A DNA stretch of 38,615 nt, taken from a virus. A program made the position numbers and the translations under genes. How positions within the stretch are numbered: the stretch's first letter is position 1; every line of letters starts with the position of its first letter. The stretch is from UHGV virus genome UHGV-0210052; one strand, written 5' to 3'. Shown here piece after piece: positions 2,166 to 36,899 of the stretch. The notes below the pieces were generated by a model. That model worked only from the letters and a program-made list of their open reading frames with translations, did not search any database and was not told the DNA's origin.

Positions 2166-2442
2166 CCTGCAACTTGCCGTTAAAGGTGAATATTTCGACC
2201 AGATGAAGTCATACGAGAAAACGGAAGAGTATCGCCTGTGTAATGATTACTGGAAAAAGCGAATTATGTTCCGGAAGTATGACCGCCTGATTATCACAAA
2301 GGGATATCCGAAGCGCGACGATTCCAGTCGCAGAATTGATGTTCCGTATGGTGGATATGAAATCAAAACAATCACACATCCGCACTTCGGTGATAAACCG
2401 GTAAAGGTGTTCGCGATAAAGGTGAATATCAGCAATGAATAA
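2158..2442 (+). CDS. hypothetical protein, 94 aa
   Basis: GTG start at 2158 with AGGAGG SD at 2146-2151; the track's 2029 start lies inside the upstream gene. Confidence 0.45.
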   Translation: MANLQLAVKGEYFDQMKSYEKTEEYRLCNDYWKKRIMFRKYDRLIITKGYPKRDDSSRRIDVPYGGYEIKTITHPHFGDKPVKVFAIKVNISNE

Positions 2443-2443
2443 C

Positions 2444-2473
2444 AATCCTCGCACTCGCGGGGATTTCTTTTAT
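2444..2473 (+). terminator. intrinsic terminator-like hairpin
   Basis: 9 bp stem (AATCCTCGC/GCGGGGATT, one G-U) with 4 nt loop followed by TCTTTTAT. Confidence 0.45.
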
Positions 2474-2501
2474 CTGAACTCGCTACGGCGAGTTTTGTTT
2501 T

Positions 2502-2813
2502 ATGGAGATGATTATGGCCTGTTCAACATTCAACCATCTAACGTTACAGAAATACCAGACAGACCCTGAAGATTTATGCTCACTGTGTGGCGGAAATCAT
2601 GGTAAAGCCGCCATGATCGAATGTAAGGACAAAATCCACATTTGCCTTAATTGCGTTGATGTCCTCGTTGATATCAAAAATGAGAGAGAAGATAAAAAGC
2701 GTAGCGAGGCTGTTCGCGCCTTAGATTCATGGATGCGGGATGGATATAGTGCCGCGCAAATTTATGACTTAGCAATATCAAAAGGAGAAATACCAGGAGT
2801 GCGCATCGAATAA
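2502..2813 (+). CDS. hypothetical Cys-rich protein, 103 aa
   Basis: Intact ORF with CxxC ... CxxC pattern; followed by a terminator. Confidence 0.45.
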   Translation: MEMIMACSTFNHLTLQKYQTDPEDLCSLCGGNHGKAAMIECKDKIHICLNCVDVLVDIKNEREDKKRSEAVRALDSWMRDGYSAAQIYDLAISKGEIPGVRIE

Positions 2814-2854
2814 GACGTAACCAACATTCGAATTGAAGAACTGAAAGAACACCA

Positions 2855-2878
2855 AGCCGCCTGATGGCGGTTTTTTAT
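2855..2878 (+). terminator. rho-independent terminator at end of ea gene block
   Basis: AGCCGCC-TGAT-GGCGGTT hairpin followed by TTTTTATTG. Confidence 0.55.
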
Positions 2879-2886
2879 TGCCTGAT

Positions 2887-2902
2887 TTGCAGGTTCGATT
2901 CC
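2887..2902 (+). other. tRNA-Arg (argW) T-arm-like fragment upstream of torI
   Basis: TTGCAGGTTCGATTCC matches the T-stem/loop of E. coli tRNA-Arg(CCU) as recalled; identity ends after CC. Confidence 0.4.
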
Positions 2903-2921
2903 CTATTCGGAGATAGCACTC

Positions 2922-3122
2922 ATGCAACACGAACTACAACCTGATTCACTGGTTGATTTGAAATTCATCATGGCTGATACTGGCTTCGGTAAAACCTTCA
3001 TCTACGACCGGATTAAGTCCGGCGACCTGCCAAAAGCCAAAGTTATCCACGGGCGAGCAAGATGGTTATATCGTGACCATTGTGAATTCAAAAATAAGCT
3101 CTTAAGCCGCGCCAATGGGTAA
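2922..3122 (+). CDS. torI: TorI-like excisionase / recombination directionality factor, 66 aa
   Basis: Protein matches, from memory, the 66 aa TorI excisionase of the KplE1/CPS-53 prophage; lies immediately upstream of attP core and int. Confidence 0.7.
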   Translation: MQHELQPDSLVDLKFIMADTGFGKTFIYDRIKSGDLPKAKVIHGRARWLYRDHCEFKNKLLSRANG

Positions 3123-3137
3123 AATAGCGGGTAAAAT
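3117..3137 (+). repeat. two direct GGGTAAAAT repeats at torI stop (putative arm-type recombinase sites)
   Basis: GGGTAAAAT at 3117-3125 and 3129-3137; same motif recurs at 3327-3371. Confidence 0.45.
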
Positions 3138-3195
3138 ATTTCTCACATCTAAAAAACACCATTCAAATCAATCCCCTGCCTCGTCAAGTAGATGT

Positions 3196-3210
3196 CTGCA
3201 GGGGACACCA
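3196..3210 (+). other. attP core: identity to 3-prime end of tRNA-Arg argW
   Basis: CTGCAGGGGACACCA equals T-stem 3-prime half, acceptor 3-prime strand, discriminator and CCA of argW as recalled; flanked by CCCCTGC/GCAGGGG inverted repeat; lies between torI and int. Confidence 0.6.
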
Positions 3211-3326
3211 TTTATCAGTTCGCTCCCATCCGTACCAGTCCGCAAAATCCCCTGAATATCAAGCCTTACGTATATTCACGGTTCGTCATGGTTCGCGTCA
3301 GATCGTTGACAGCCGCACTCCATGAC

Positions 3327-3371
3327 GGGTAAAAAGTGGATAAAATAATTTTACCCACCGGATTTTTACCC
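3327..3371. repeat. GGGTAAAA motif cluster abutting int start codon
   Basis: GGGTAAAAA at 3327-3335 direct; TTTTACCC at 3349-3356 and 3364-3371 inverted; last copy ends 1 nt before int ATG. Confidence 0.45.
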
Positions 3372-4529
3372 ATGCTCACCGTTAAGCAGATTGAAGCAGC
3401 AAAGCCGAAAGAAAAACCATACCGCCTACTCGATGGTAATGGCCTGTACCTTTATGTCCCTGTATCAGGGAAAAAGGTATGGCAGCTTCGCTACAAGATT
3501 GACGGTAAGGAGAAAATCCTGACTGTCGGAAAATATCCGCTTATGACTTTGCAGGAAGCAAGGGATAAGGCATGGACTGCGAGGAAAGACATCTCGGTTG
3601 GCATCGATCCGGTAAAGGCGAAAAAGTCTTCGTCTAGCAACAATTCATTTAGTGCGATTTACAAGGAATGGTACGAGCACAAGAAGCAAGTCTGGTCAGT
3701 AGGCTATGCAACTGAACTTGCCAAAATGTTTGATGACGACATTTTACCCATCATCGGCGGTCTTGAGATTCAGGATATTGAGCCGATGCAACTGCTGGAA
3801 GTAATCCGCAGATTTGAAGATCGCGGTGCAATGGAGCGAGCCAACAAAGCCCGCAGAAGATGCGGCGAGGTTTTTCGTTACGCTATTGTCACTGGTAGGG
3901 CTAAATATAACCCGGCACCTGACCTTGCTGACGCCATGAAGGGATACCGCAAGAAGAACTTCCCGTTTTTACCTGCCGACCAGATCCCGGCATTCAACAA
4001 AGCACTTGCAACATTTTCAGGAAGTATCGTATCGCTCATTGCGACCAAAGTTTTACGCTACACAGCCCTAAGAACGAAAGAGCTTCGTTCCATGCAATGG
4101 AAGAACGTCGATTTTGAAAACAGGATTATCACCATCGACGCCAGTGTGATGAAGGGACGCAAAATTCATGTTGTCCCGATGTCAGACCAGGTGGTTGAAC
4201 TTCTCACTACGCTAAGCTCAATCACTAAACCAGTATCAGAGTTTGTTTTTGCCGGGCGCAACGATAAGAAAAAGCCAATCTGCGAGAACGCGGTATTGCT
4301 TGTGATCAAACAAATCGGCTATGAGGGTCTGGAAAGCGGTCACGGATTCAGGCATGAATTCAGCACGATTATGAACGAGCACGAATGGCCTGCTGACGCT
4401 ATTGAAGTGCAACTTGCACATGCCAACGGCGGATCTGTGCGCGGGATTTACAACCATGCTCAGTATCTAGATAAGCGCAGAGAAATGATGCAGTGGTGGG
4501 CTGACTGGATTGATGAAAAGGTGGAGTGA
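3372..4529 (+). CDS. intS: tyrosine integrase, IntS (CPS-53/KplE1) type, 385 aa
   Basis: From MLTVKQIEAAKPKEK the protein matches K-12 IntS as recalled; C-terminal R...HGFRH...Y catalytic motifs; track GTG 3336 start rejected. Confidence 0.9.
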   Translation: MLTVKQIEAAKPKEKPYRLLDGNGLYLYVPVSGKKVWQLRYKIDGKEKILTVGKYPLMTLQEARDKAWTARKDISVGIDPVKAKKSSSSNNSFSAIYKEWYEHKKQVWSVGYATELAKMFDDDILPIIGGLEIQDIEPMQLLEVIRRFEDRGAMERANKARRRCGEVFRYAIVTGRAKYNPAPDLADAMKGYRKKNFPFLPADQIPAFNKALATFSGSIVSLIATKVLRYTALRTKELRSMQWKNVDFENRIITIDASVMKGRKIHVVPMSDQVVELLTTLSSITKPVSEFVFAGRNDKKKPICENAVLLVIKQIGYEGLESGHGFRHEFSTIMNEHEWPADAIEVQLAHANGGSVRGIYNHAQYLDKRREMMQWWADWIDEKVE

Positions 4530-13297: not shown

Positions 13298-14142
13298 TGC
13301 TCCGCGATTATCTTGATGGTTGTGGCAGTAAACGCCGCACCATTTGACTGAATGGTTAACGTGCTGCCATTTGTGGCAAGAAATCCGTCTTTATCCACGC
13401 TGAAGAACGTAGCTAACAGGATGTTGTCGGTTGTTGTCGCCGCATTACGACTGCTAACCAGTGTGTCAGGAACAGAGCCGGAAAAGGTTAGCTGCATTGA
13501 TCTGTTAGCGGTTCCGCTGGGCCACGTCCCGACGATCGACAGCTTGAAGAACAATGTTTTGTTCTCGTTGAACACAACCATCTTGTTGTTAACGGTGTCG
13601 AAGAATGGTGCCAACGTGCCGGATGACGGCGTGAGCGTTTTCAGCAGGCTAACAAGGTTGGTCGGCGCTGTCGGGATGGTTACAGATACGCCAGAGTAAA
13701 CAACCTCTGACTTCTTGCGCGTGGTTGCATACTCCAGAGCATCAATGCGCGTTTCATGGTCTGAAACCTGCGACTCCAGCGACTGAACTCTGGTATCAAG
13801 CGACGCAATATCGCTTTCATTCTGAGCGATTCGCGTTTCATGTTCCTGAAGAGTTGATTCTGCCTGGCTGATTCGCTCCTCATGATTAACAAGCGTTGCT
13901 TCCGCAGCAGAAATTCGCTGCTCATGGTCAGCGAGAATCACATCCTGCTCATCGTTCCTGACTTGTGCATCATAAGCGCCCTGTCCGGCCTCGTTGGCCT
14001 TGTTAGCCACATTACCAACATCAGTGCCCTGTGCGATAACGTAAAGCAGATACGACTGCGAGAAGATATTGCGTGGAAGGACTGATGTATCGAGCCGCGT
14101 AGCCTGGATGATTACCGGCACATTGAGATTCGAATCCGCCAT
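13294..14142 (-). CDS. tail needle protein (gp26-like) with C-terminal knob domain, 282 aa
   Basis: Heptad coiled coil ([26 protein letters not shown]...) followed by ~130 aa globular C-terminus; position after gp10-like gene. Confidence 0.7.
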
Positions 14143-25948: not shown

Positions 25949-26572
25949 CTAACGTGTGACCGCGTTCAAAATGTTGTCTGCGATTGACTCTTCCTTGTGG
26001 CATTGCACCACCAGAGCGTCATACAGCGGCTTAACAGTTCGTGACCAGGTGGGTTGGGTAAGGTTGGGGATTAGCATCGTTACAGCGCGATATGCGGCGC
26101 TTGCTGGCATCCTAGAATAGCCGACGCCTTTGCATCTTCCGCACTCTTTCTCGACAACTCTCCCCCACTGCTCTGTTTTGGCAATATCAACGGCCCGGCC
26201 AGTACCGTGGCAATCTCTGCATCTTGCGCCCGGTGTCGCGGCACTACGGCAATAATCCGCATAAGCGAATGTTGCGAGCACTTGCAGTACCTTCGCCTTA
26301 GTATTTCCTTCGAGCTTTGCCACACCACGGTATTTCCCCGATACCTTGTGTGCAAATTGCATCAGATAGTTGATAGCCTTTTGTTTGTCGTTCTGGCTGA
26401 GTTCGTGCTTACCACAGAATGCAGCCATTCCGAATCCGGCTTGTGATTGCGCCATCCCCATGGCAGCCATCACATCAGTACCGGAAAGAGAGTCAGAAGC
26501 CGTGGCCCGTGGTGAGTCGCTCATCATCGGGCTTTTTGGCGAATGAAATTTAGCTACGCTTTCGAGTCTCAT
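25949..26572 (-). CDS. Q: late antiterminator Q, lambda type, 207 aa
   Basis: Matches lambda Q as recalled, including CRDCHGTGR...CGRCKGVG zinc motif. Confidence 0.9.
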   Translation of the reverse strand: MRLESVAKFHSPKSPMMSDSPRATASDSLSGTDVMAAMGMAQSQAGFGMAAFCGKHELSQNDKQKAINYLMQFAHKVSGKYRGVAKLEGNTKAKVLQVLATFAYADYCRSAATPGARCRDCHGTGRAVDIAKTEQWGRVVEKECGRCKGVGYSRMPASAAYRAVTMLIPNLTQPTWSRTVKPLYDALVVQCHKEESIADNILNAVTR

Positions 26573-30452: not shown

Positions 30453-31904
30453 TCAGAATCCTCCTTTCTTCTTGGACTGCGGTTCCTCGCGTTCACGGCG
30501 GCGCATTTCAGCAGACTGTTGGTCTGTGTCATAAATAGCGCCATTTGCCTGAATGCAATACACCGTGCCGGTATTGCCATGACGATTGAGACGAAGGATT
30601 AGTTCGGTTTCACCAGGCGGAACACTGTCATCAAAAGCACCTTCACGATGGATCCCCACCCAATAATCGCAATCCTGTTCAATCTGCCCTGTATCGCGCG
30701 AGTCACTTGGTAATGGGCGTTTATTGGTTCGGCTTTCCAGTGCGCGGTTAAGCTGCGTCAGAAGCACAACAACGCAATCAAGCTCTTTGGCAAGGTTCTT
30801 CAGTCCTTTGGTGATCATGCCGTAAGCAAGGTCGTTACGATCGGCTTTCTCAGCGGTCATTAGTGTCAGGTAATCGACCAGAATCATCCCAACACATCCT
30901 TTTTCTCGCTTGATTCGACGGCTTTCGCTGACGATTTGAGCCAGAGATAATCCAGGCGTGTCGTCGATGTAAAGCAGGTCGATTTCACTCAAGCGATTTG
31001 CTGTTTCGATCGCCCTGTTGAAGTCACCATCGTAATCACCCTGATAGCCGTCATCAGCGTCATTTGTCGCCGGAAGGTAAAAAATATTCGGGTTAACACC
31101 AGACTTCTGCCCTACCAGTTTTTCCAGTATCTGGTCACCTGGCATTTCAAGGCTGAACATCAGAGCTGGCTTTTTCTCATGCACTGCGCAATTGATTGCC
31201 ATCTGGCTGTATAGCGTCGTTTTCCCCATCTTAGGGCGAGCGCCAATGACAAACAGAGAGCCTTTCACCAGACCTTTCGGTGACAGCATCCTGTCCAGCG
31301 ATGGGATCCCTGTGCTCATTCCTCGTTGTTCGCCTGACGGGTCAAATCGCTTCTCAAGGTCGCTAACCCAGTCTTCCATGACCTCACCAAATAAGCGAAG
31401 GCCGCGACGCGATCCGGTTTTTGCATGGTCTGTCAGTTGCGTGAAAATCGCCTGAATAGCTTCGTACTTCTGCGTTGCAGTCATTCCGTTGCGTGAATAG
31501 AGCAATTCCGTCGCTTCAGTCATGCGGTTGATGGCGTAGCGTTCCATTGCGGTTTCACGAACCTGCATTGCATAGGCAACGATGTTTGCTGCGCTTGGCG
31601 TGTTCTTTGCGATCTCAGCGATATAAGCAAAACCGCCAACAGACGCCGTTAACGATTTGCGCTCCAGTTCATCGAAAAGCGTCAGCCCATCTACTGGCTT
31701 TTGCTCCCGGTGCATTCTGGTTATTTCTTCGAAAAGGATTTTGTGTGGCCGGCTGTAAAATGAATCAGGCTTCAGCATCGCCAGAACTTTCCGGACGCGC
31801 TCACTGCTGTCATCATCCAGAAGCAATCCACCAATAACCGCCTGCTCTGCCTCGATGCTATGGGGCGGCGCATAAAAATTATCGGTCATCGTGTTCACCC
31901 TCAC
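30453..31904 (-). CDS. replicative DNA helicase, DnaB family, 483 aa
   Basis: Walker A GARPKMGKTT and DnaB-like C-terminal RecA fold motifs; GTG start; overlaps O-like gene. Confidence 0.85.
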   Translation of the reverse strand: MRVNTMTDNFYAPPHSIEAEQAVIGGLLLDDDSSERVRKVLAMLKPDSFYSRPHKILFEEITRMHREQKPVDGLTLFDELERKSLTASVGGFAYIAEIAKNTPSAANIVAYAMQVRETAMERYAINRMTEATELLYSRNGMTATQKYEAIQAIFTQLTDHAKTGSRRGLRLFGEVMEDWVSDLEKRFDPSGEQRGMSTGIPSLDRMLSPKGLVKGSLFVIGARPKMGKTTLYSQMAINCAVHEKKPALMFSLEMPGDQILEKLVGQKSGVNPNIFYLPATNDADDGYQGDYDGDFNRAIETANRLSEIDLLYIDDTPGLSLAQIVSESRRIKREKGCVGMILVDYLTLMTAEKADRNDLAYGMITKGLKNLAKELDCVVVLLTQLNRALESRTNKRPLPSDSRDTGQIEQDCDYWVGIHREGAFDDSVPPGETELILRLNRHGNTGTVYCIQANGAIYDTDQQSAEMRRREREEPQSKKKGGF

Positions 31905-32769
31905 GAACTTTCAGGTAGGTATTGTCGTTAAGCAGGAAATCAAATCCCTTTTTGTGCCAGACGGTTCCGCGTTGATGGTTTGGGCGTTCTTCGAACATCC
32001 ATCGGCAATTTTCGCCTACGTAGCTCAAATAATTTCTCCAGTCCTGCATCGTGAACCCATGCCCGTCAAGCTGGCGGGTTATCACTCCGGCTTTGCGCCA
32101 GAACGTTCGGATCTGGTTTTTACGCTTGTCATTCAGTGCGCGGATTCTTGGCGCTTCAGGAAGGATTTCGTGGTAAGCATCGACAACATCCTGACAGCTA
32201 ACGGAAGGTTTTTTCTTGTCAGACTTTTTGTCTGCTGTGGCACTCTCTAATACGTCAGTATTAGAGATATTATTTATATTATTGTTTATGGACAACCGTT
32301 GGACAACCGTTGGACAATCTCCGCTGAGAGCCGCGCCATTACTGGGGTTTGCGTTGGACAACCGTTGGACAACCGTTGGACAATTTTTTGCCTGAAAATC
32401 GTCATATTTAACGATTGTAAACAGGCTAAATTTCTTCCCCATCGAGCAAATATTAAGCATCCCTTTCGACTCAAAAGTCCGTAATAAGCTCCGAACTTTG
32501 TTGTCGGGGATGAATGTTTCTCTGACCAGCGACGGGCGTCCAGTTATCATCTGACCGCGATCAACAGTTATCGGACCGATATCCGTATTGACGACAGTAG
32601 ATTCGTGATTAGCCTTGAGGATTAAGTGAAGCCAAAGATGTACTGCCTGAGAGTCCTTATAGAGCCTGCTGTCCATAAACTGGCGGTGTATAGAGACATA
32701 CCCCATACTGGATGCCTCCTGATGTTGTACAGGGTTATGCCTGTAATCAGCTAACTTAACGACGCCCAT
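31879..32769 (-). CDS. replication initiation protein (lambda O-like role) containing origin iterons, 296 aa
   Basis: Position upstream of helicase; internal CPTVVQRLS peptide repeats encoded by DNA iterons. Confidence 0.75.
   Translation of the reverse strand: MGVVKLADYRHNPVQHQEASSMGYVSIHRQFMDSRLYKDSQAVHLWLHLILKANHESTVVNTDIGPITVDRGQMITGRPSLVRETFIPDNKVRSLLRTFESKGMLNICSMGKKFSLFTIVKYDDFQAKNCPTVVQRLSNANPSNGAALSGDCPTVVQRLSINNNINNISNTDVLESATADKKSDKKKPSVSCQDVVDAYHEILPEAPRIRALNDKRKNQIRTFWRKAGVITRQLDGHGFTMQDWRNYLSYVGENCRWMFEERPNHQRGTVWHKKGFDFLLNDNTYLKVREGEHDDR
32288..32386. repeat. origin iterons: two clusters of three 11 bp GGACAACCGTT repeats
   Basis: Tandem copies at 32290-32320 and 32356-32386, followed on the - strand by an AT-rich tract. 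Confidence 0.7.
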
Positions 32770-32917
32770 GTTTCACTCCTGCTTTTGCTAGTCTGTAAAC
32801 ACCAACAAGGCGCTCTGCGAACGCCCTGTTATTTGCTGCGGCTACCACTAATCCCTCAGGTGAATCAGGGTGTCGAATCTCTTCTTTTTCCTGGTATTTC
32901 TTACGACGTTTTGTCAT
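32756..32917 (-). CDS. small basic hypothetical protein, 53 aa
   Basis: ATG 32917 with AGGAG SD; stop overlaps start of O-like gene; below track cutoff. Confidence 0.35.
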   Translation of the reverse strand: MTKRRKKYQEKEEIRHPDSPEGLVVAAANNRAFAERLVGVYRLAKAGVKHGRR

Positions 32918-32926
32918 AATTACTCC

Positions 32927-32995
32927 TGTGGATTGATCCAGTCTTTCTACATCAGGCCTCGAAGAATTCGCCGTTCTTCGGGGCTTTTTCTTTTG
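32927..32995 (+). ncRNA. OOP-like antisense RNA opposite the cII 3-prime end
   Basis: Strong + strand terminator (10 bp stem CCTCGAAGAA/TTCTTCGGGG then TTTTTCTTTT) inside the cII 3-prime end; CATAAT -10-like box at 32915-32920. Confidence 0.4.
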
Positions 32996-33230
32996 TCAGC
33001 ATTCTGGCTACTTTCTTAGCCAGTTCCGCCAACTCCTCGTCTTCAACACCCCACTCCAGTACAGCCAGAAGCATGGCCATCTTTGGGATAAAGCTGTCTT
33101 TCCATCGCGAAATTTGCGATTCATTGATCCCTAATGCGTCGGCCACCTTTCGCTGACCACGTACAGCAATTCGATTCAGGATGTTGCTTGTAATTGCATT
33201 CGCTTTCTTGCGAGTACTTGTAAGTTGCAT
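32952..33230 (-). CDS. cII: CII transcriptional activator, 92 aa
   Basis: SQISRWKDSFIPKMAMLLAVLEWGV matches lambda CII core as recalled. Confidence 0.85.
   Translation of the reverse strand: MQLTSTRKKANAITSNILNRIAVRGQRKVADALGINESQISRWKDSFIPKMAMLLAVLEWGVEDEELAELAKKVARMLTKEKAPKNGEFFEA
33184..33197 (+). promoter_or_regulatory. CII binding site TTGC-N6-TTGC (PRE -35 region)
   Basis: TTGCTTGTAATTGC on + strand inside the cII 5-prime coding region, oriented toward cI. Confidence 0.5.
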
Positions 33231-33288
33231 ATGTAAGTATTTCCTTAACTAATAAGAAGTTATGCGCATCAACTTATGCGCGTTGTAT

Positions 33289-33332
33289 TCCCGCATTTCG
33301 GCGGGAATGAGGACCATGACTGTTAAAGAGCG
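33289..33332 (-). promoter_or_regulatory. nutR (boxA CGCTCTTTAACA, boxB hairpin)
   Basis: On - strand boxA-like CGCTCTTTAACA after cro stop, then UCCCGCCGAAAUGCGGGA stem-loop; same elements recur at nutL. Confidence 0.6.
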
Positions 33333-33338
33333 GTGTTA

Positions 33339-33539
33339 CTATTTGTTTTTCTTGTTGCTTGGGAAAGGACGAACTTCCTCTCCAATCACACTGCCATCAG
33401 GCTTTACCGTAACCATGATGTTACGGCCTGCCAGAATGGCCTTGCTGATAGCGCACTGGATTACACCAAAGTCACTGGCTGCTTTAGCCTGTCCATGGAT
33501 TTTGGCGTAATCGGCAAGTGTCATTCGAATCATATGCAC
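33339..33539 (-). CDS. cro: Cro repressor, 66 aa
   Basis: [49 protein letters not shown] closely resembles lambda Cro as recalled; GTG start. Confidence 0.85.
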
Positions 33540-33562
33540 TCTCCGTTATTAACCATGAACAA

Positions 33563-33591
33563 AGAATACTACAGGTATTCAAAGCAATCAA
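33563..33591 (-). promoter_or_regulatory. PR promoter
   Basis: On - strand TTGATT, 17 bp spacer, TATTCT; overlaps OR1/OR2. Confidence 0.5.
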
Positions 33592-33628
33592 TACTCAGGG
33601 TATTTTTAGTTTAAGTACCTTAGCTATT
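33565..33628. promoter_or_regulatory. OR operator array (three 15 bp AATAC-N5-GTATT sites)
   Basis: AATACTACAGGTATT 33565-33579, AATACTCAGGGTATT 33590-33604, degenerate AGTACCTTAGCTATT 33614-33628. Confidence 0.6.
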
Positions 33629-33633
33629 AGAAT
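33605..33633 (+). promoter_or_regulatory. PRM promoter (leaderless cI transcript)
   Basis: TAGAAT at 33628-33633, 7 nt before cI ATG with no SD; weak -35 TTTAGT. Confidence 0.4.
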
Positions 33634-33639
33634 TAAGCT

Positions 33640-34356
33640 ATGGAAAATAAAAAATCACTGACGACAGAACAGCTCGAAGACGCTAAGCGGCTTAAGGCTT
33701 TGTATGAGTCAAAAAAGAAAGAATTGGGAATAACCCAATACTCAATCGCTGATGAACTGGGTATCACCCAAGGAGCGGTAGGGCATTATCTTAATGGCAG
33801 AAACGCGCTAAACGTTGAGGTTGCATCTGGTTTTGCACGATTGTTGCAAGTCTCAATTGCTGATTTTAGCCAGTCAATTGCTGCCAAGGTTGCAGAACAG
33901 GCAGAAAGCCTTAAGAGCGATGCCAACGTAAGGTATGCAGGGGAATACAGAGCAGGAAAGAGGTATCCGGTGTTAAGCAGTATCCAGGCTGGCTCGTGGT
34001 GTGAAGCATGCGAACCATACACCATTAAAGACATAGATGTTTGGCTTGAGTCTGACGCGCATATTCAAGGTAATGCGTTTTGGCTTAAAGTGGAAGGTGA
34101 TTCAATGACGGCACCGGTTGGGTTAAGCATTCCAGAGGGAACATTCGTTCTTTTCGATACCGGAAGGGAGGCGATCAACGGCAGCTTGGTCATAGCAAAA
34201 CTTTCTGACTCTAACGAAGCAACATTCAAGAAGCTGATAATCGACGGCGGAAATAAATACCTCAAGGGACTTAATCCTGCATGGCCTCTCGTGCCAATCA
34301 ATGGAAACTGCAAGATTATAGGCGTTGCAATTGAGACAAAACTAAGGCTGGTTTGA
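33640..34356 (+). CDS. cI: CI repressor (HTH N-terminus, LexA-like S24 C-terminus), 238 aa
   Basis: LTTEQLEDAKRLKALYESKKKELG, Ser/Lys dyad context (EGDSM ... FKKL); resembles lambda CI as recalled. Confidence 0.9.
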   Translation: MENKKSLTTEQLEDAKRLKALYESKKKELGITQYSIADELGITQGAVGHYLNGRNALNVEVASGFARLLQVSIADFSQSIAAKVAEQAESLKSDANVRYAGEYRAGKRYPVLSSIQAGSWCEACEPYTIKDIDVWLESDAHIQGNAFWLKVEGDSMTAPVGLSIPEGTFVLFDTGREAINGSLVIAKLSDSNEATFKKLIIDGGNKYLKGLNPAWPLVPINGNCKIIGVAIETKLRLV

Positions 34357-35109: not shown

Positions 35110-35382
35110 ATGACAGTAGTCATTACATATCTGGCTGACGATAACGCCAGAAATCGCCGCAGAGCACGCAGACAGGCTCAACGTGAACAGGCAATGCAAG
35201 AGCAGCGACTGGCACGAAAAATTGCGCTAAAGCTCTCTGGTTGCGTCAGAGCAGATAAAGCAGCATCACTCGGAAGCCTTCGCTGCAAGAAGGCAGATGA
35301 ATGCAGTGGAAGTATTTGCCTGCCAAACGTAGCCATTTACGCGGCAGGCTACCGGAAATCAAAACAACTGACAGCGAGGTAA
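35110..35382 (+). CDS. N: N antiterminator, P22 gp24 type, 90 aa
   Basis: Arg-rich N-terminus NARNRRRARRQAQREQ; C-terminus AIYAAGYRKSKQLTAR resembles P22 gene 24 protein as recalled; GGAGG SD. Confidence 0.8.
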   Translation: MTVVITYLADDNARNRRRARRQAQREQAMQEQRLARKIALKLSGCVRADKAASLGSLRCKKADECSGSICLPNVAIYAAGYRKSKQLTAR

Positions 35383-36150: not shown

Positions 36151-36245
36151 GCACTGTGTATTCATTCCAACGAGTGAATACACGGAGCAATGTCGCTCGT
36201 AACTAAACAGGAGCCGACTTGTTCTGATTATTGGAAATCTTCTTT

Positions 36246-36271
36246 GCCCTCCAATGTGAGGGCCTTTTTAT
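36246..36271 (+). terminator. rho-independent terminator inside the PL operon (tL-like)
   Basis: GCCCTC-CAATGT-GAGGGC hairpin followed by CTTTTTAT. Confidence 0.6.
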
Positions 36272-36335
36272 ATGCATACCAATAACGCTTCACGAGAGGC
36301 GTTTTCGTTATGCAATCAAACAGAAGGAGCATCCT

Positions 36336-36506
36336 ATGCAACAGTTCGCTATTGCAGGGGCGGCATCGGTTCGCCCTTTCAACCCGATTTTATCGGTACA
36401 GCATTCACGAAAAAATATTTTAACCGGAGCAGACTTTAAACAACCAAGAATGAAAAGTTTGCTCGAAAAGCTTTGGGATATTTTGAAACAACAAGGCCGT
36501 CCATGA
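36336..36506 (+). CDS. cIII: CIII-like protein (FtsH inhibitor), 56 aa
   Basis: MQQFAIAG ... KSLLEKLWDILKQQGRP parallels lambda CIII MQYAIAG ... RLIDILNQPG as recalled; AAGGAG SD; track start 36231 rejected (spans terminator). Confidence 0.7.
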   Translation: MQQFAIAGAASVRPFNPILSVQHSRKNILTGADFKQPRMKSLLEKLWDILKQQGRP

Positions 36507-36610
36507 GTTTTACAGATAACTGGTCAGACGAAGAATTCATTCGTCAGATGAACAAAATGCTCAATCAGCACAAAGAACAGGAGAAAGATGATGATTCTGA
36601 CTCTGAATGA
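36503..36610 (+). CDS. small acidic hypothetical peptide, 35 aa
   Basis: ATG overlaps cIII stop (ATGA); overlaps next gene in another frame. Confidence 0.3.
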   Translation: MSFTDNWSDEEFIRQMNKMLNQHKEQEKDDDSDSE

Positions 36611-36899
36611 TAAGCGTGAAATATCGCAAATAATCGCAAGTTTTACTGATGAAGATTACGAACGAATCAACAGTGAAGTTGATCGCCTCTGCAAACGTTG
36701 CGACCCAATAAGCGAAATGCTTCGCTCATATAAACCAGATGAACACACTAAGGACGCTATCGACTGGCTGGAAGATGATGACTGTAACTATCAGGAAAAA
36801 GCCGCTGAATGGTTCTGGGATGCAATAACCGAAAGAGTTAAGGCTGAATATGCCTTCGCAATATTCAAACGCAGACACATTTTTGGAGAAGCAGCATGA
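36588..36899 (+). CDS. hypothetical protein, 103 aa
   Basis: AGGAG SD before ATG 36588; directly upstream of recT. Confidence 0.5.
   Translation: MMILTLNDKREISQIIASFTDEDYERINSEVDRLCKRCDPISEMLRSYKPDEHTKDAIDWLEDDDCNYQEKAAEWFWDAITERVKAEYAFAIFKRRHIFGEAA

Follow-up and report, generated by a model that had tools for sequence, protein, structure and literature searches.

For decades, pO-oop-tO and PRE have been familiar elements of lambdoid phages. In lambda, the duplex of OOP RNA and cII mRNA is reportedly cut by RNase III, which lowers cII expression (an observation credited to Krinke and Wulff), and Ho et al. are said to have demonstrated in 1992, for lambda CII and P22 C1, that the protein binds and that transcription depends on it. 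LexA regulation of lambda pO belongs to the same body of knowledge and is not relied on here. Lambda CII binds TTGCN6TTGC sequences flanking the -35 region of PRE, PI and PaQ (PMC4651098), and the accepted target of both lambda CII and P22 C1 is TTGCN6TTGC/T (PMC2629481). For the antisense RNA, Hayes et al. have published a 33-bp consensus spanning pO and the 5' part of oop in lambdoid phages, and replacing ATTAT in the -10 element of lambda pO abolished both oop expression and the OOP antisense phenotype (PMC3349717). A 63-nt RNA, P22C-oop, has been sequenced from infected Salmonella at 14,024-14,086 and is abundant in P22-infected cells (PMC13397905), and RNA-seq has led to the annotation of an OOP(BTP1) RNA that lies antisense to the 3' end of cII (PMC7067206).

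Here these systems are compared with the immunity region of the virus genome UHGV-0210052; the whole stretch of 38,615 nt that was analysed is referred to as the window. It is the genome of a P22-like (Lederbergvirus-type) E. coli phage whose early region is mosaic. The top matches of positions 14000-38615 are Kapi1, phiv205-1, E212, CUS-3 and HK620, with about 96% identity over 50-63% of the query, and over positions 32700-33700 identity is 98.6% to mEpX2 and, in the shared parts, 99.0-99.5% to HK620 and HZ41. The orientation of the immunity region is reversed (Table 1). The gene assigned to cII carries the same annotation in the HK620, Sf6 and mEpX2 records, and the 53-aa ORF that follows it had no match in a Pfam search. 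From sequences, geometry, homology, covariation and conservation across relatives, we read the region as the usual lambdoid module for lysis/lysogeny control, belonging to a P22-like E. coli phage and lying in reverse orientation, with a probability of roughly 0.87.

Table 1. Coordinates of the genes, promoters, binding sites and RNA features of the window.
Feature	Position	Strand	Details
int (tyrosine integrase)	3336-4529	+	
Q	25949-26572	-	Pfam Antiterm, E = 1.3e-57
Putative PaQ-like CII-dependent promoter	26272-26304	+	Within Q, antisense; TTGCGAGCACTTGC, 13 nt, TAGTAT
DnaB-type helicase	30453-31904	-	
O	31879-32769	-	
53-aa ORF	32756-32917	-	HK97 gp53 / HK022 gp53 type, between cII and O
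Conserved 33-bp lambdoid block	32910-32942	+	pO -10 region and first 15 nt of oop
Predicted pO promoter, extended -10	32912-32920	+	TGtCATAAT; same TGn-CATAAT in lambda and P22
Predicted OOP antisense RNA	32928-32994	+	About 64-67 nt; covariance model 101.9 bits
Small 5' hairpin of OOP RNA	32928-32950	+	5-pair outer stem
Intrinsic terminator tO	32954-32996	+	14-pair stem 32954-32986, 5-nt loop, then U-rich tail
cII (P22 c1-type)	32952-33230	-	92 aa; Pfam Phage_CII PF05269, E = 3.8e-42
Distal perfect repeat TTGC-N6-TTGC	33184-33197	+	cII codons 12-16; would sit at -63 to -50
Proximal CII box TTGC-N6-TTGT	33208-33221	+	Flanks the PRE -35; geometry as in lambda PRE, PI and PaQ
PRE -10	33235-33240	+	AAGTAT; annotated as -10 in CL707
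cro	33339-33539	-	Pfam Cro, E = 3.6e-26; PRE transcript would cross it antisense
cI repressor	33640-34356	+	Pfam HTH_3 and Peptidase_S24; predicted target of PRE transcription
N	35110-35382		Pfam N_peptide
Putative cIII ORF	36231-36506	+	'putative cIII' in mEpX1, 'CIII' in several RefSeq relatives

The reverse complement of the published consensus has a single exact match in the window (0 expected by chance), and on the other strand this block, a feature by which a lambdoid OOP is recognised, reads ACTGGATCaATCcACAGGAGTaATTATGaCAAA. Within it lies the predicted pO promoter, an extended -10 with no recognisable -35. The sequence upstream of the TG varies between mosaics, and TGnCATAAT is kept. 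A consensus promoter scan missed both pO and PRE, the former because it is an extended -10 promoter with a poor, non-conserved -35; for the latter the result is expected, since PRE is activator-dependent. The hits which the same scan gave at 32289-32384 are iteron repeats in O, where two clusters of tandem TTGGACAACCG-type iterons (32291-32386) map to the replication origin annotated in HK620 and Sf6. In the first-pass annotation a -10-like CATAAT box had been placed about 40 nt upstream of the terminator; the box is indeed present (32915-32920), at a distance of 33 nt before the stem.

Many phages, among them HK022, HK629, Stx phages and YYZ-2008, match the 33-bp block with 100% identity and match nowhere else in a query of 32900-33260. 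In the HK629 record the adjoining stretch is annotated as 'similar to coliphage lambda oop RNA', while in the Sf6 record the block corresponds to the 'bsq5 boundary sequence' (a mosaic boundary). The opposite strand of the block contains the Shine-Dalgarno sequence and the ATG of the 53-aa ORF, the ATG being the complement of CAT in CATAAT. These observations fit a role of the block as a mosaic recombination joint, besides its likely functions as promoter and ribosome-binding site. Conservation of the block by itself is no proof of promoter function, because the block marks a mosaic boundary and provides the next gene with its ribosome-binding site and start codon.

One could go further and regard both the hairpin and the block as by-products of a mosaic boundary, of the translation start of the next gene and of a generic insulating terminator, with no functional antisense regulation. 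The boundary annotation, which is the only one given to the block in Sf6, and the Shine-Dalgarno sequence and ATG on its opposite strand agree with such an explanation, as does the report ascribed to Krinke et al. (1991), according to which loss of OOP in lambda leads only to mild phenotypes. It is contradicted by the abundance of oop RNA in P22-infected cells and its detection in BTP1, by the -10 mutation of lambda pO that abolishes the OOP antisense phenotype, and by two features of the terminator described below, namely its compensatory changes and the strand of its U-tract. We regard this explanation as very improbable.

The preferred reading, a functional pO-oop-tO unit, predicts an RNA whose 5' end is G32928 by homology with lambda, or G32931 by the 5' end seen in P22 sRNA-seq, and whose 3' end falls in the U-tract at about 32990-32996. 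This RNA would start in the spacer between cII and the next gene, and it is antisense to the 3' end of cII, which it overlaps. An intrinsic terminator on the + strand at 32955-32995, in the last cII codons, had been noticed previously, and the present analysis bears it out: the 14-pair hairpin at 32954-32986, followed by TTTCTTTTGT, covers the cII stop codon and the last 11 codons. The 72-nt segment 32925-32996 folds with -27.9 kcal/mol, whereas shuffled versions average -15.2 (z = -5.1), and none of 200 shuffled sequences folded as well. The U-tract accompanies the hairpin on the + strand only, and PR transcription into the replication genes should therefore not be stopped by it.

No curated Rfam family covers OOP at threshold, and the Rfam scan of 32300-33800 (E up to 10) yielded nothing above threshold; the sub-threshold matches to ctRNA_p42d (19 bits) and sX13 (18 bits) were discarded as chance hits. 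The covariance model used here was built from the window-type oop sequence. It matches the lambda, P22, BTP1, ST64T, SEN22, mEp213, Erwinia, Klebsiella, Cronobacter, HK022 and HK629-type loci; weak reverse-strand hairpin hits (12.8 bits) from the first search were removed by a tighter E-value. The match in P22 (AF217253, 14089-14023) coincides with the sequenced P22C-oop. Covariation was assessed in a model-based alignment of 21 distinct sequences, which was used instead of a plain MAFFT alignment of oop variants that had put the 3' stem arm of the P22 type one column off.

In this alignment, which is fitted to the model structure and thus biases the counts toward pairing, 10 of the 14 pairs of the terminator helix have two-sided compensatory changes and 96.6% of cells are paired. 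Over the whole OOP structure, 94.6% of cells are paired, as compared with 31-54% when the partner column is slid, and the covariation score was reached by none of 500 shuffles. The evidence for the small 5' hairpin is weak: 89.5% of cells are paired, with a two-sided change at one pair and one-sided changes at two. A comparison of the window and P22 stems by eye likewise revealed five compensatory pairs that differ. At the protein level, the window and BTP1 share the CII tail KEKAPKNGEFFEA, P22 has KEKPQDCGNSFEA, the Erwinia phage KEKAPSCANSFEA and the Cronobacter phage KDKAPSAGTLEA. The tail varies while the hairpin is kept, and selection is therefore directed at the structure of the RNA or of the terminator.

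The last 48 nt of cII, including the oop terminator, are the same in the window, which has a P22 c1-type gene, and in the BTP1 type (BTP1, ST64T, SEN22), whereas the N-terminal parts of the genes differ; this distribution points to a recombination joint within cII. Over the oop gene itself, 66 of 67 nt are identical between the BTP1 locus and the window. P22 oop resembles that of the window in architecture, length and c1/cII family, the first 30 nt being identical, while the five compensatory changes fall in the upper terminator stem, and the loop and the CII tail also differ.

Compared with lambda, the predicted unit occupies the same position and strand, starting just past cII and ending inside the cII 3' end, with an intrinsic terminator within the cII coding sequence and with CAT of the -10 complementary to the ATG of the next gene. 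On the leftward strand, lambda has tttgtCATAATgactcctGttgatagatccagt and the window tttgtCATAATtactcctGtggattgatccagt; one nucleotide just downstream of the TGtCATAAT region is different, and the first 15 nt of oop are near-identical. The OOP RNA of lambda is longer (77 nt versus about 64-67 nt in the window) and overlaps cII by 55 nt rather than about 43 nt; the two terminators are unrelated in sequence, the next gene is O in lambda and the 53-aa ORF in the window, and the -35 regions are also different. Homology with lambda pO-oop-tO is thus supported for the predicted promoter -10, RNA 5' end, terminator and antisense position, and the predicted oop gene of the window is unannotated but canonical. 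The earlier suggestion of an OOP-like antisense RNA is upheld by the exact 33-bp block, the model match and the P22 and BTP1 homologues.

The second element of the module is the CII-activated promoter PRE. The three lambda promoters PRE, PI and PaQ all have TTGC-N6-TTGC followed at 13 nt by the -10, which is AAGTAT, TGTACT and TAGTAT, respectively. In the window, the proximal box has the same arrangement (TTGCGAGTACTTGT, 13 nt, AAGTAT at 33235-33240, then TTCCTTA), and lambda has exactly the same sequence over CATATGTAAGTATTTCCTTA, a stretch that runs from the cII ATG complement past the -10 as far as the predicted start. The hexamer between the repeats, GAGTAC, is a poor -35. We take the lambda PRE start to be 38343, and alignment with it gives a presumed start at about A33247 in the window, so that the proximal box lies at -39 to -26.

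As in lambda and P22, TTGC-N6-TTG(C/T) at -39 to -26 is followed by 13 nt and the -10, and the direction is from cro to cI; the second repeat is TTGT in the window and P22 and TTGC in lambda. The putative promoter lies on the + strand, and its transcript would run antisense through cro and then into cI; a scan of 33247-33640 for a terminator-like site on the + strand found none. An earlier proposal of a CII-activated PRE reading through cro toward cI was therefore right about the kind and direction of the promoter, while the box favoured here lies 24 nt downstream of the one then chosen, and the CII-dependent start, which had been expected near 33215, is displaced downstream by about 32 nt by lambda geometry.

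Conservation was followed in 256 cII/PRE loci, comprising the lambda, window/HK620, P22, BTP1/ST64T, HK022, HK629(HK97), Erwinia, Klebsiella and Cronobacter types; two of these, HK022 and HK629, were inspected by eye, and a script listed the others. A scan of viral contigs with the CII of the window gave only relatives of 97-100% identity, and the diversity of the set comes from scans with P22 C1 and lambda CII and from nine phage records. In every type compared, 6 nt separate the end of a TTGC-N6-TTG(C/T) sequence from the cII ATG complement (9 nt for the BTP1 type), and this conserved box always has, at 13 nt, a hexamer with A in position 2 and T in position 6.

The motif alone is weak evidence. 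TTGC-N6-TTGC is found 10 times in the window as against 3.8 times expected, and with TTGY as the second repeat the figures are 13 and 6.1. Among these 13 sites only those at 33208 (AAGTAT) and 26272 (TAGTAT) combine the lambda spacing and an nAGTAT -10 on the expected strand.

One of the remaining sites is the perfect repeat pair 24 nt upstream of the proximal box, which P22 and lambda do not have. The first-pass annotation had singled it out, and the motif is there. Public records conflict at this point: the mEpX2 record (GenBank JQ182726, 28208-28221; note 'TTGCnnnnnnTTGC') marks the distal repeat 33184-33197, while HK620, Sf6 and CL707 mark the proximal TTGC-N6-TTGT. In these three records the CII site and PRE map to 33207/33208-33221/33230, and the -10 to 33235-33240. 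The choice made in mEpX2 evidently comes from a pattern search.

If the distal repeat were the CII site of PRE, the CII-dependent transcript would start near 33215. In its favour the repeat matches the textbook consensus perfectly, is called a 'putative lambda cII binding site' in the mEpX2 record, and is intact in all close relatives of the window cII allele and in the Cronobacter phage. Yet the hexamer at 13 nt from it is CGAGTA, and that at 14 nt is GAGTAC, neither of which ends in the T that a -10 requires. P22 has CTGC-N6-TTGC in its place, and the lambda, BTP1, HK022, HK629, Erwinia and Klebsiella types lack the repeat; all of these keep the proximal box. Moreover, motifs of this type are common in the window, as counted above, the sequence is dictated by the cII codons A-I-T-S-N, and the three records that place the CII site at 33208-33221 were curated independently. 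The distal repeat is thus probably not the activator site of PRE, and a start governed by it would be most surprising; the evidence favours taking 33208-33221 as the functional CII site.

A milder version would have CII bind both boxes, the distal repeat being an auxiliary or decoy site that tunes PRE in the allele group of the window. The presence of two TTGC-N6-TTGY sequences 24 nt apart in a 38-nt stretch, when about six are expected in 77 kb of both strands, speaks for it, and more than 130 loci of this allele group contain no variant that breaks the distal repeats; these loci are, however, 95-100% identical overall, so that little can be concluded from their uniformity. With an offset of 24 bp the two sites face different sides of the helix, and neither P22 nor any other CII type conserves the distal one. 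As far as we are aware, a second site is not known from any of the three lambda CII promoters that have been characterised, which also counts against binding to both boxes. It is improbable that the distal repeat acts as a real second CII site making PRE activation cooperative or buffered in this allele group; if it did, the establishment switch at this locus would be a variant whose activator sites are arranged in tandem.

Apart from PRE, activated in our reading through the proximal box, the window has a site within Q that closely resembles lambda PaQ. Aligned with lambda 44186-44154, it has an identical box and -10 and a 13-nt spacer that differs by one nucleotide, with no other notable differences. 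By this likeness we consider it a putative anti-Q promoter dependent on CII, which would add another element to the establishment circuit. In the region 2400-3400 upstream of int, no PI-like CII box (at most one mismatch, -10 at 13 nt) was found, and any CII control of int would thus differ from that in lambda.

For cIII, the candidate (ORF 36336-36506) had no Pfam match, and a tblastn search with a lambda CIII sequence gave no match; the assignment, which follows the annotation of relatives only, is kept as putative. A further sequence with the geometry of a CII box and -10 (TTGCGATTATTTGC, 13 nt, TATCAT) is located at 36626-36639 on the - strand, within 36588-36899, a hypothetical ORF that lies just upstream of recT, and is directed antisense into the early-left operon. 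It could be a chance occurrence or an unrecognised CII-dependent antisense promoter.

The idea of a complete lambda-style establishment circuit is mostly borne out: cI, cro, cII, putative cIII, N, PRE, PaQ and oop are all present, at least as sequence-level candidates, and the missing piece is a PI-like box near int.

For the working of the module, we infer from experiments in lambda, P22 and BTP1 that transcription takes place, that CII is required and that RNase III plays its part. The constitutive extended -10 promoter pO (32912-32920) would start a + strand RNA at about 32928-32931, which would end at the terminator (32954-32986 and the U-tract) with a length of about 64-67 nt. This OOP RNA would pair with the PR message over the final 13 codons of cII and on into the spacer, up to the ribosome-binding site of the ORF that follows, and, by analogy with lambda, the duplex would be cut by RNase III, so that CII would be lowered and the decision shifted toward lysis.

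A CII tetramer would bind TTGC (33208-33211) and TTGT (33218-33221) on either side of the poor -35 and recruit RNA polymerase to AAGTAT at 33235-33240, giving a transcript from about 33247. This transcript would cross the nutR/tR1 region, then cro in antisense and then cI in sense, thereby establishing repression. CII that escapes the effect of OOP would thus activate both PRE (cI synthesis and anti-cro transcription) and PaQ (anti-Q transcription).

The system is already known, and the finding is real and ordinary. Since oop RNAs of the same sequence type have already been seen in P22 and BTP1, its value as a discovery is little. Its value lies in annotation: a plain search for TTGCN6TTGC picks the wrong site, as happened both in the first-pass annotation and in the mEpX2 record, while the 13-nt geometry between box and -10, together with conservation across phage families, identifies the likely true CII box, whose second repeat is TTGT.
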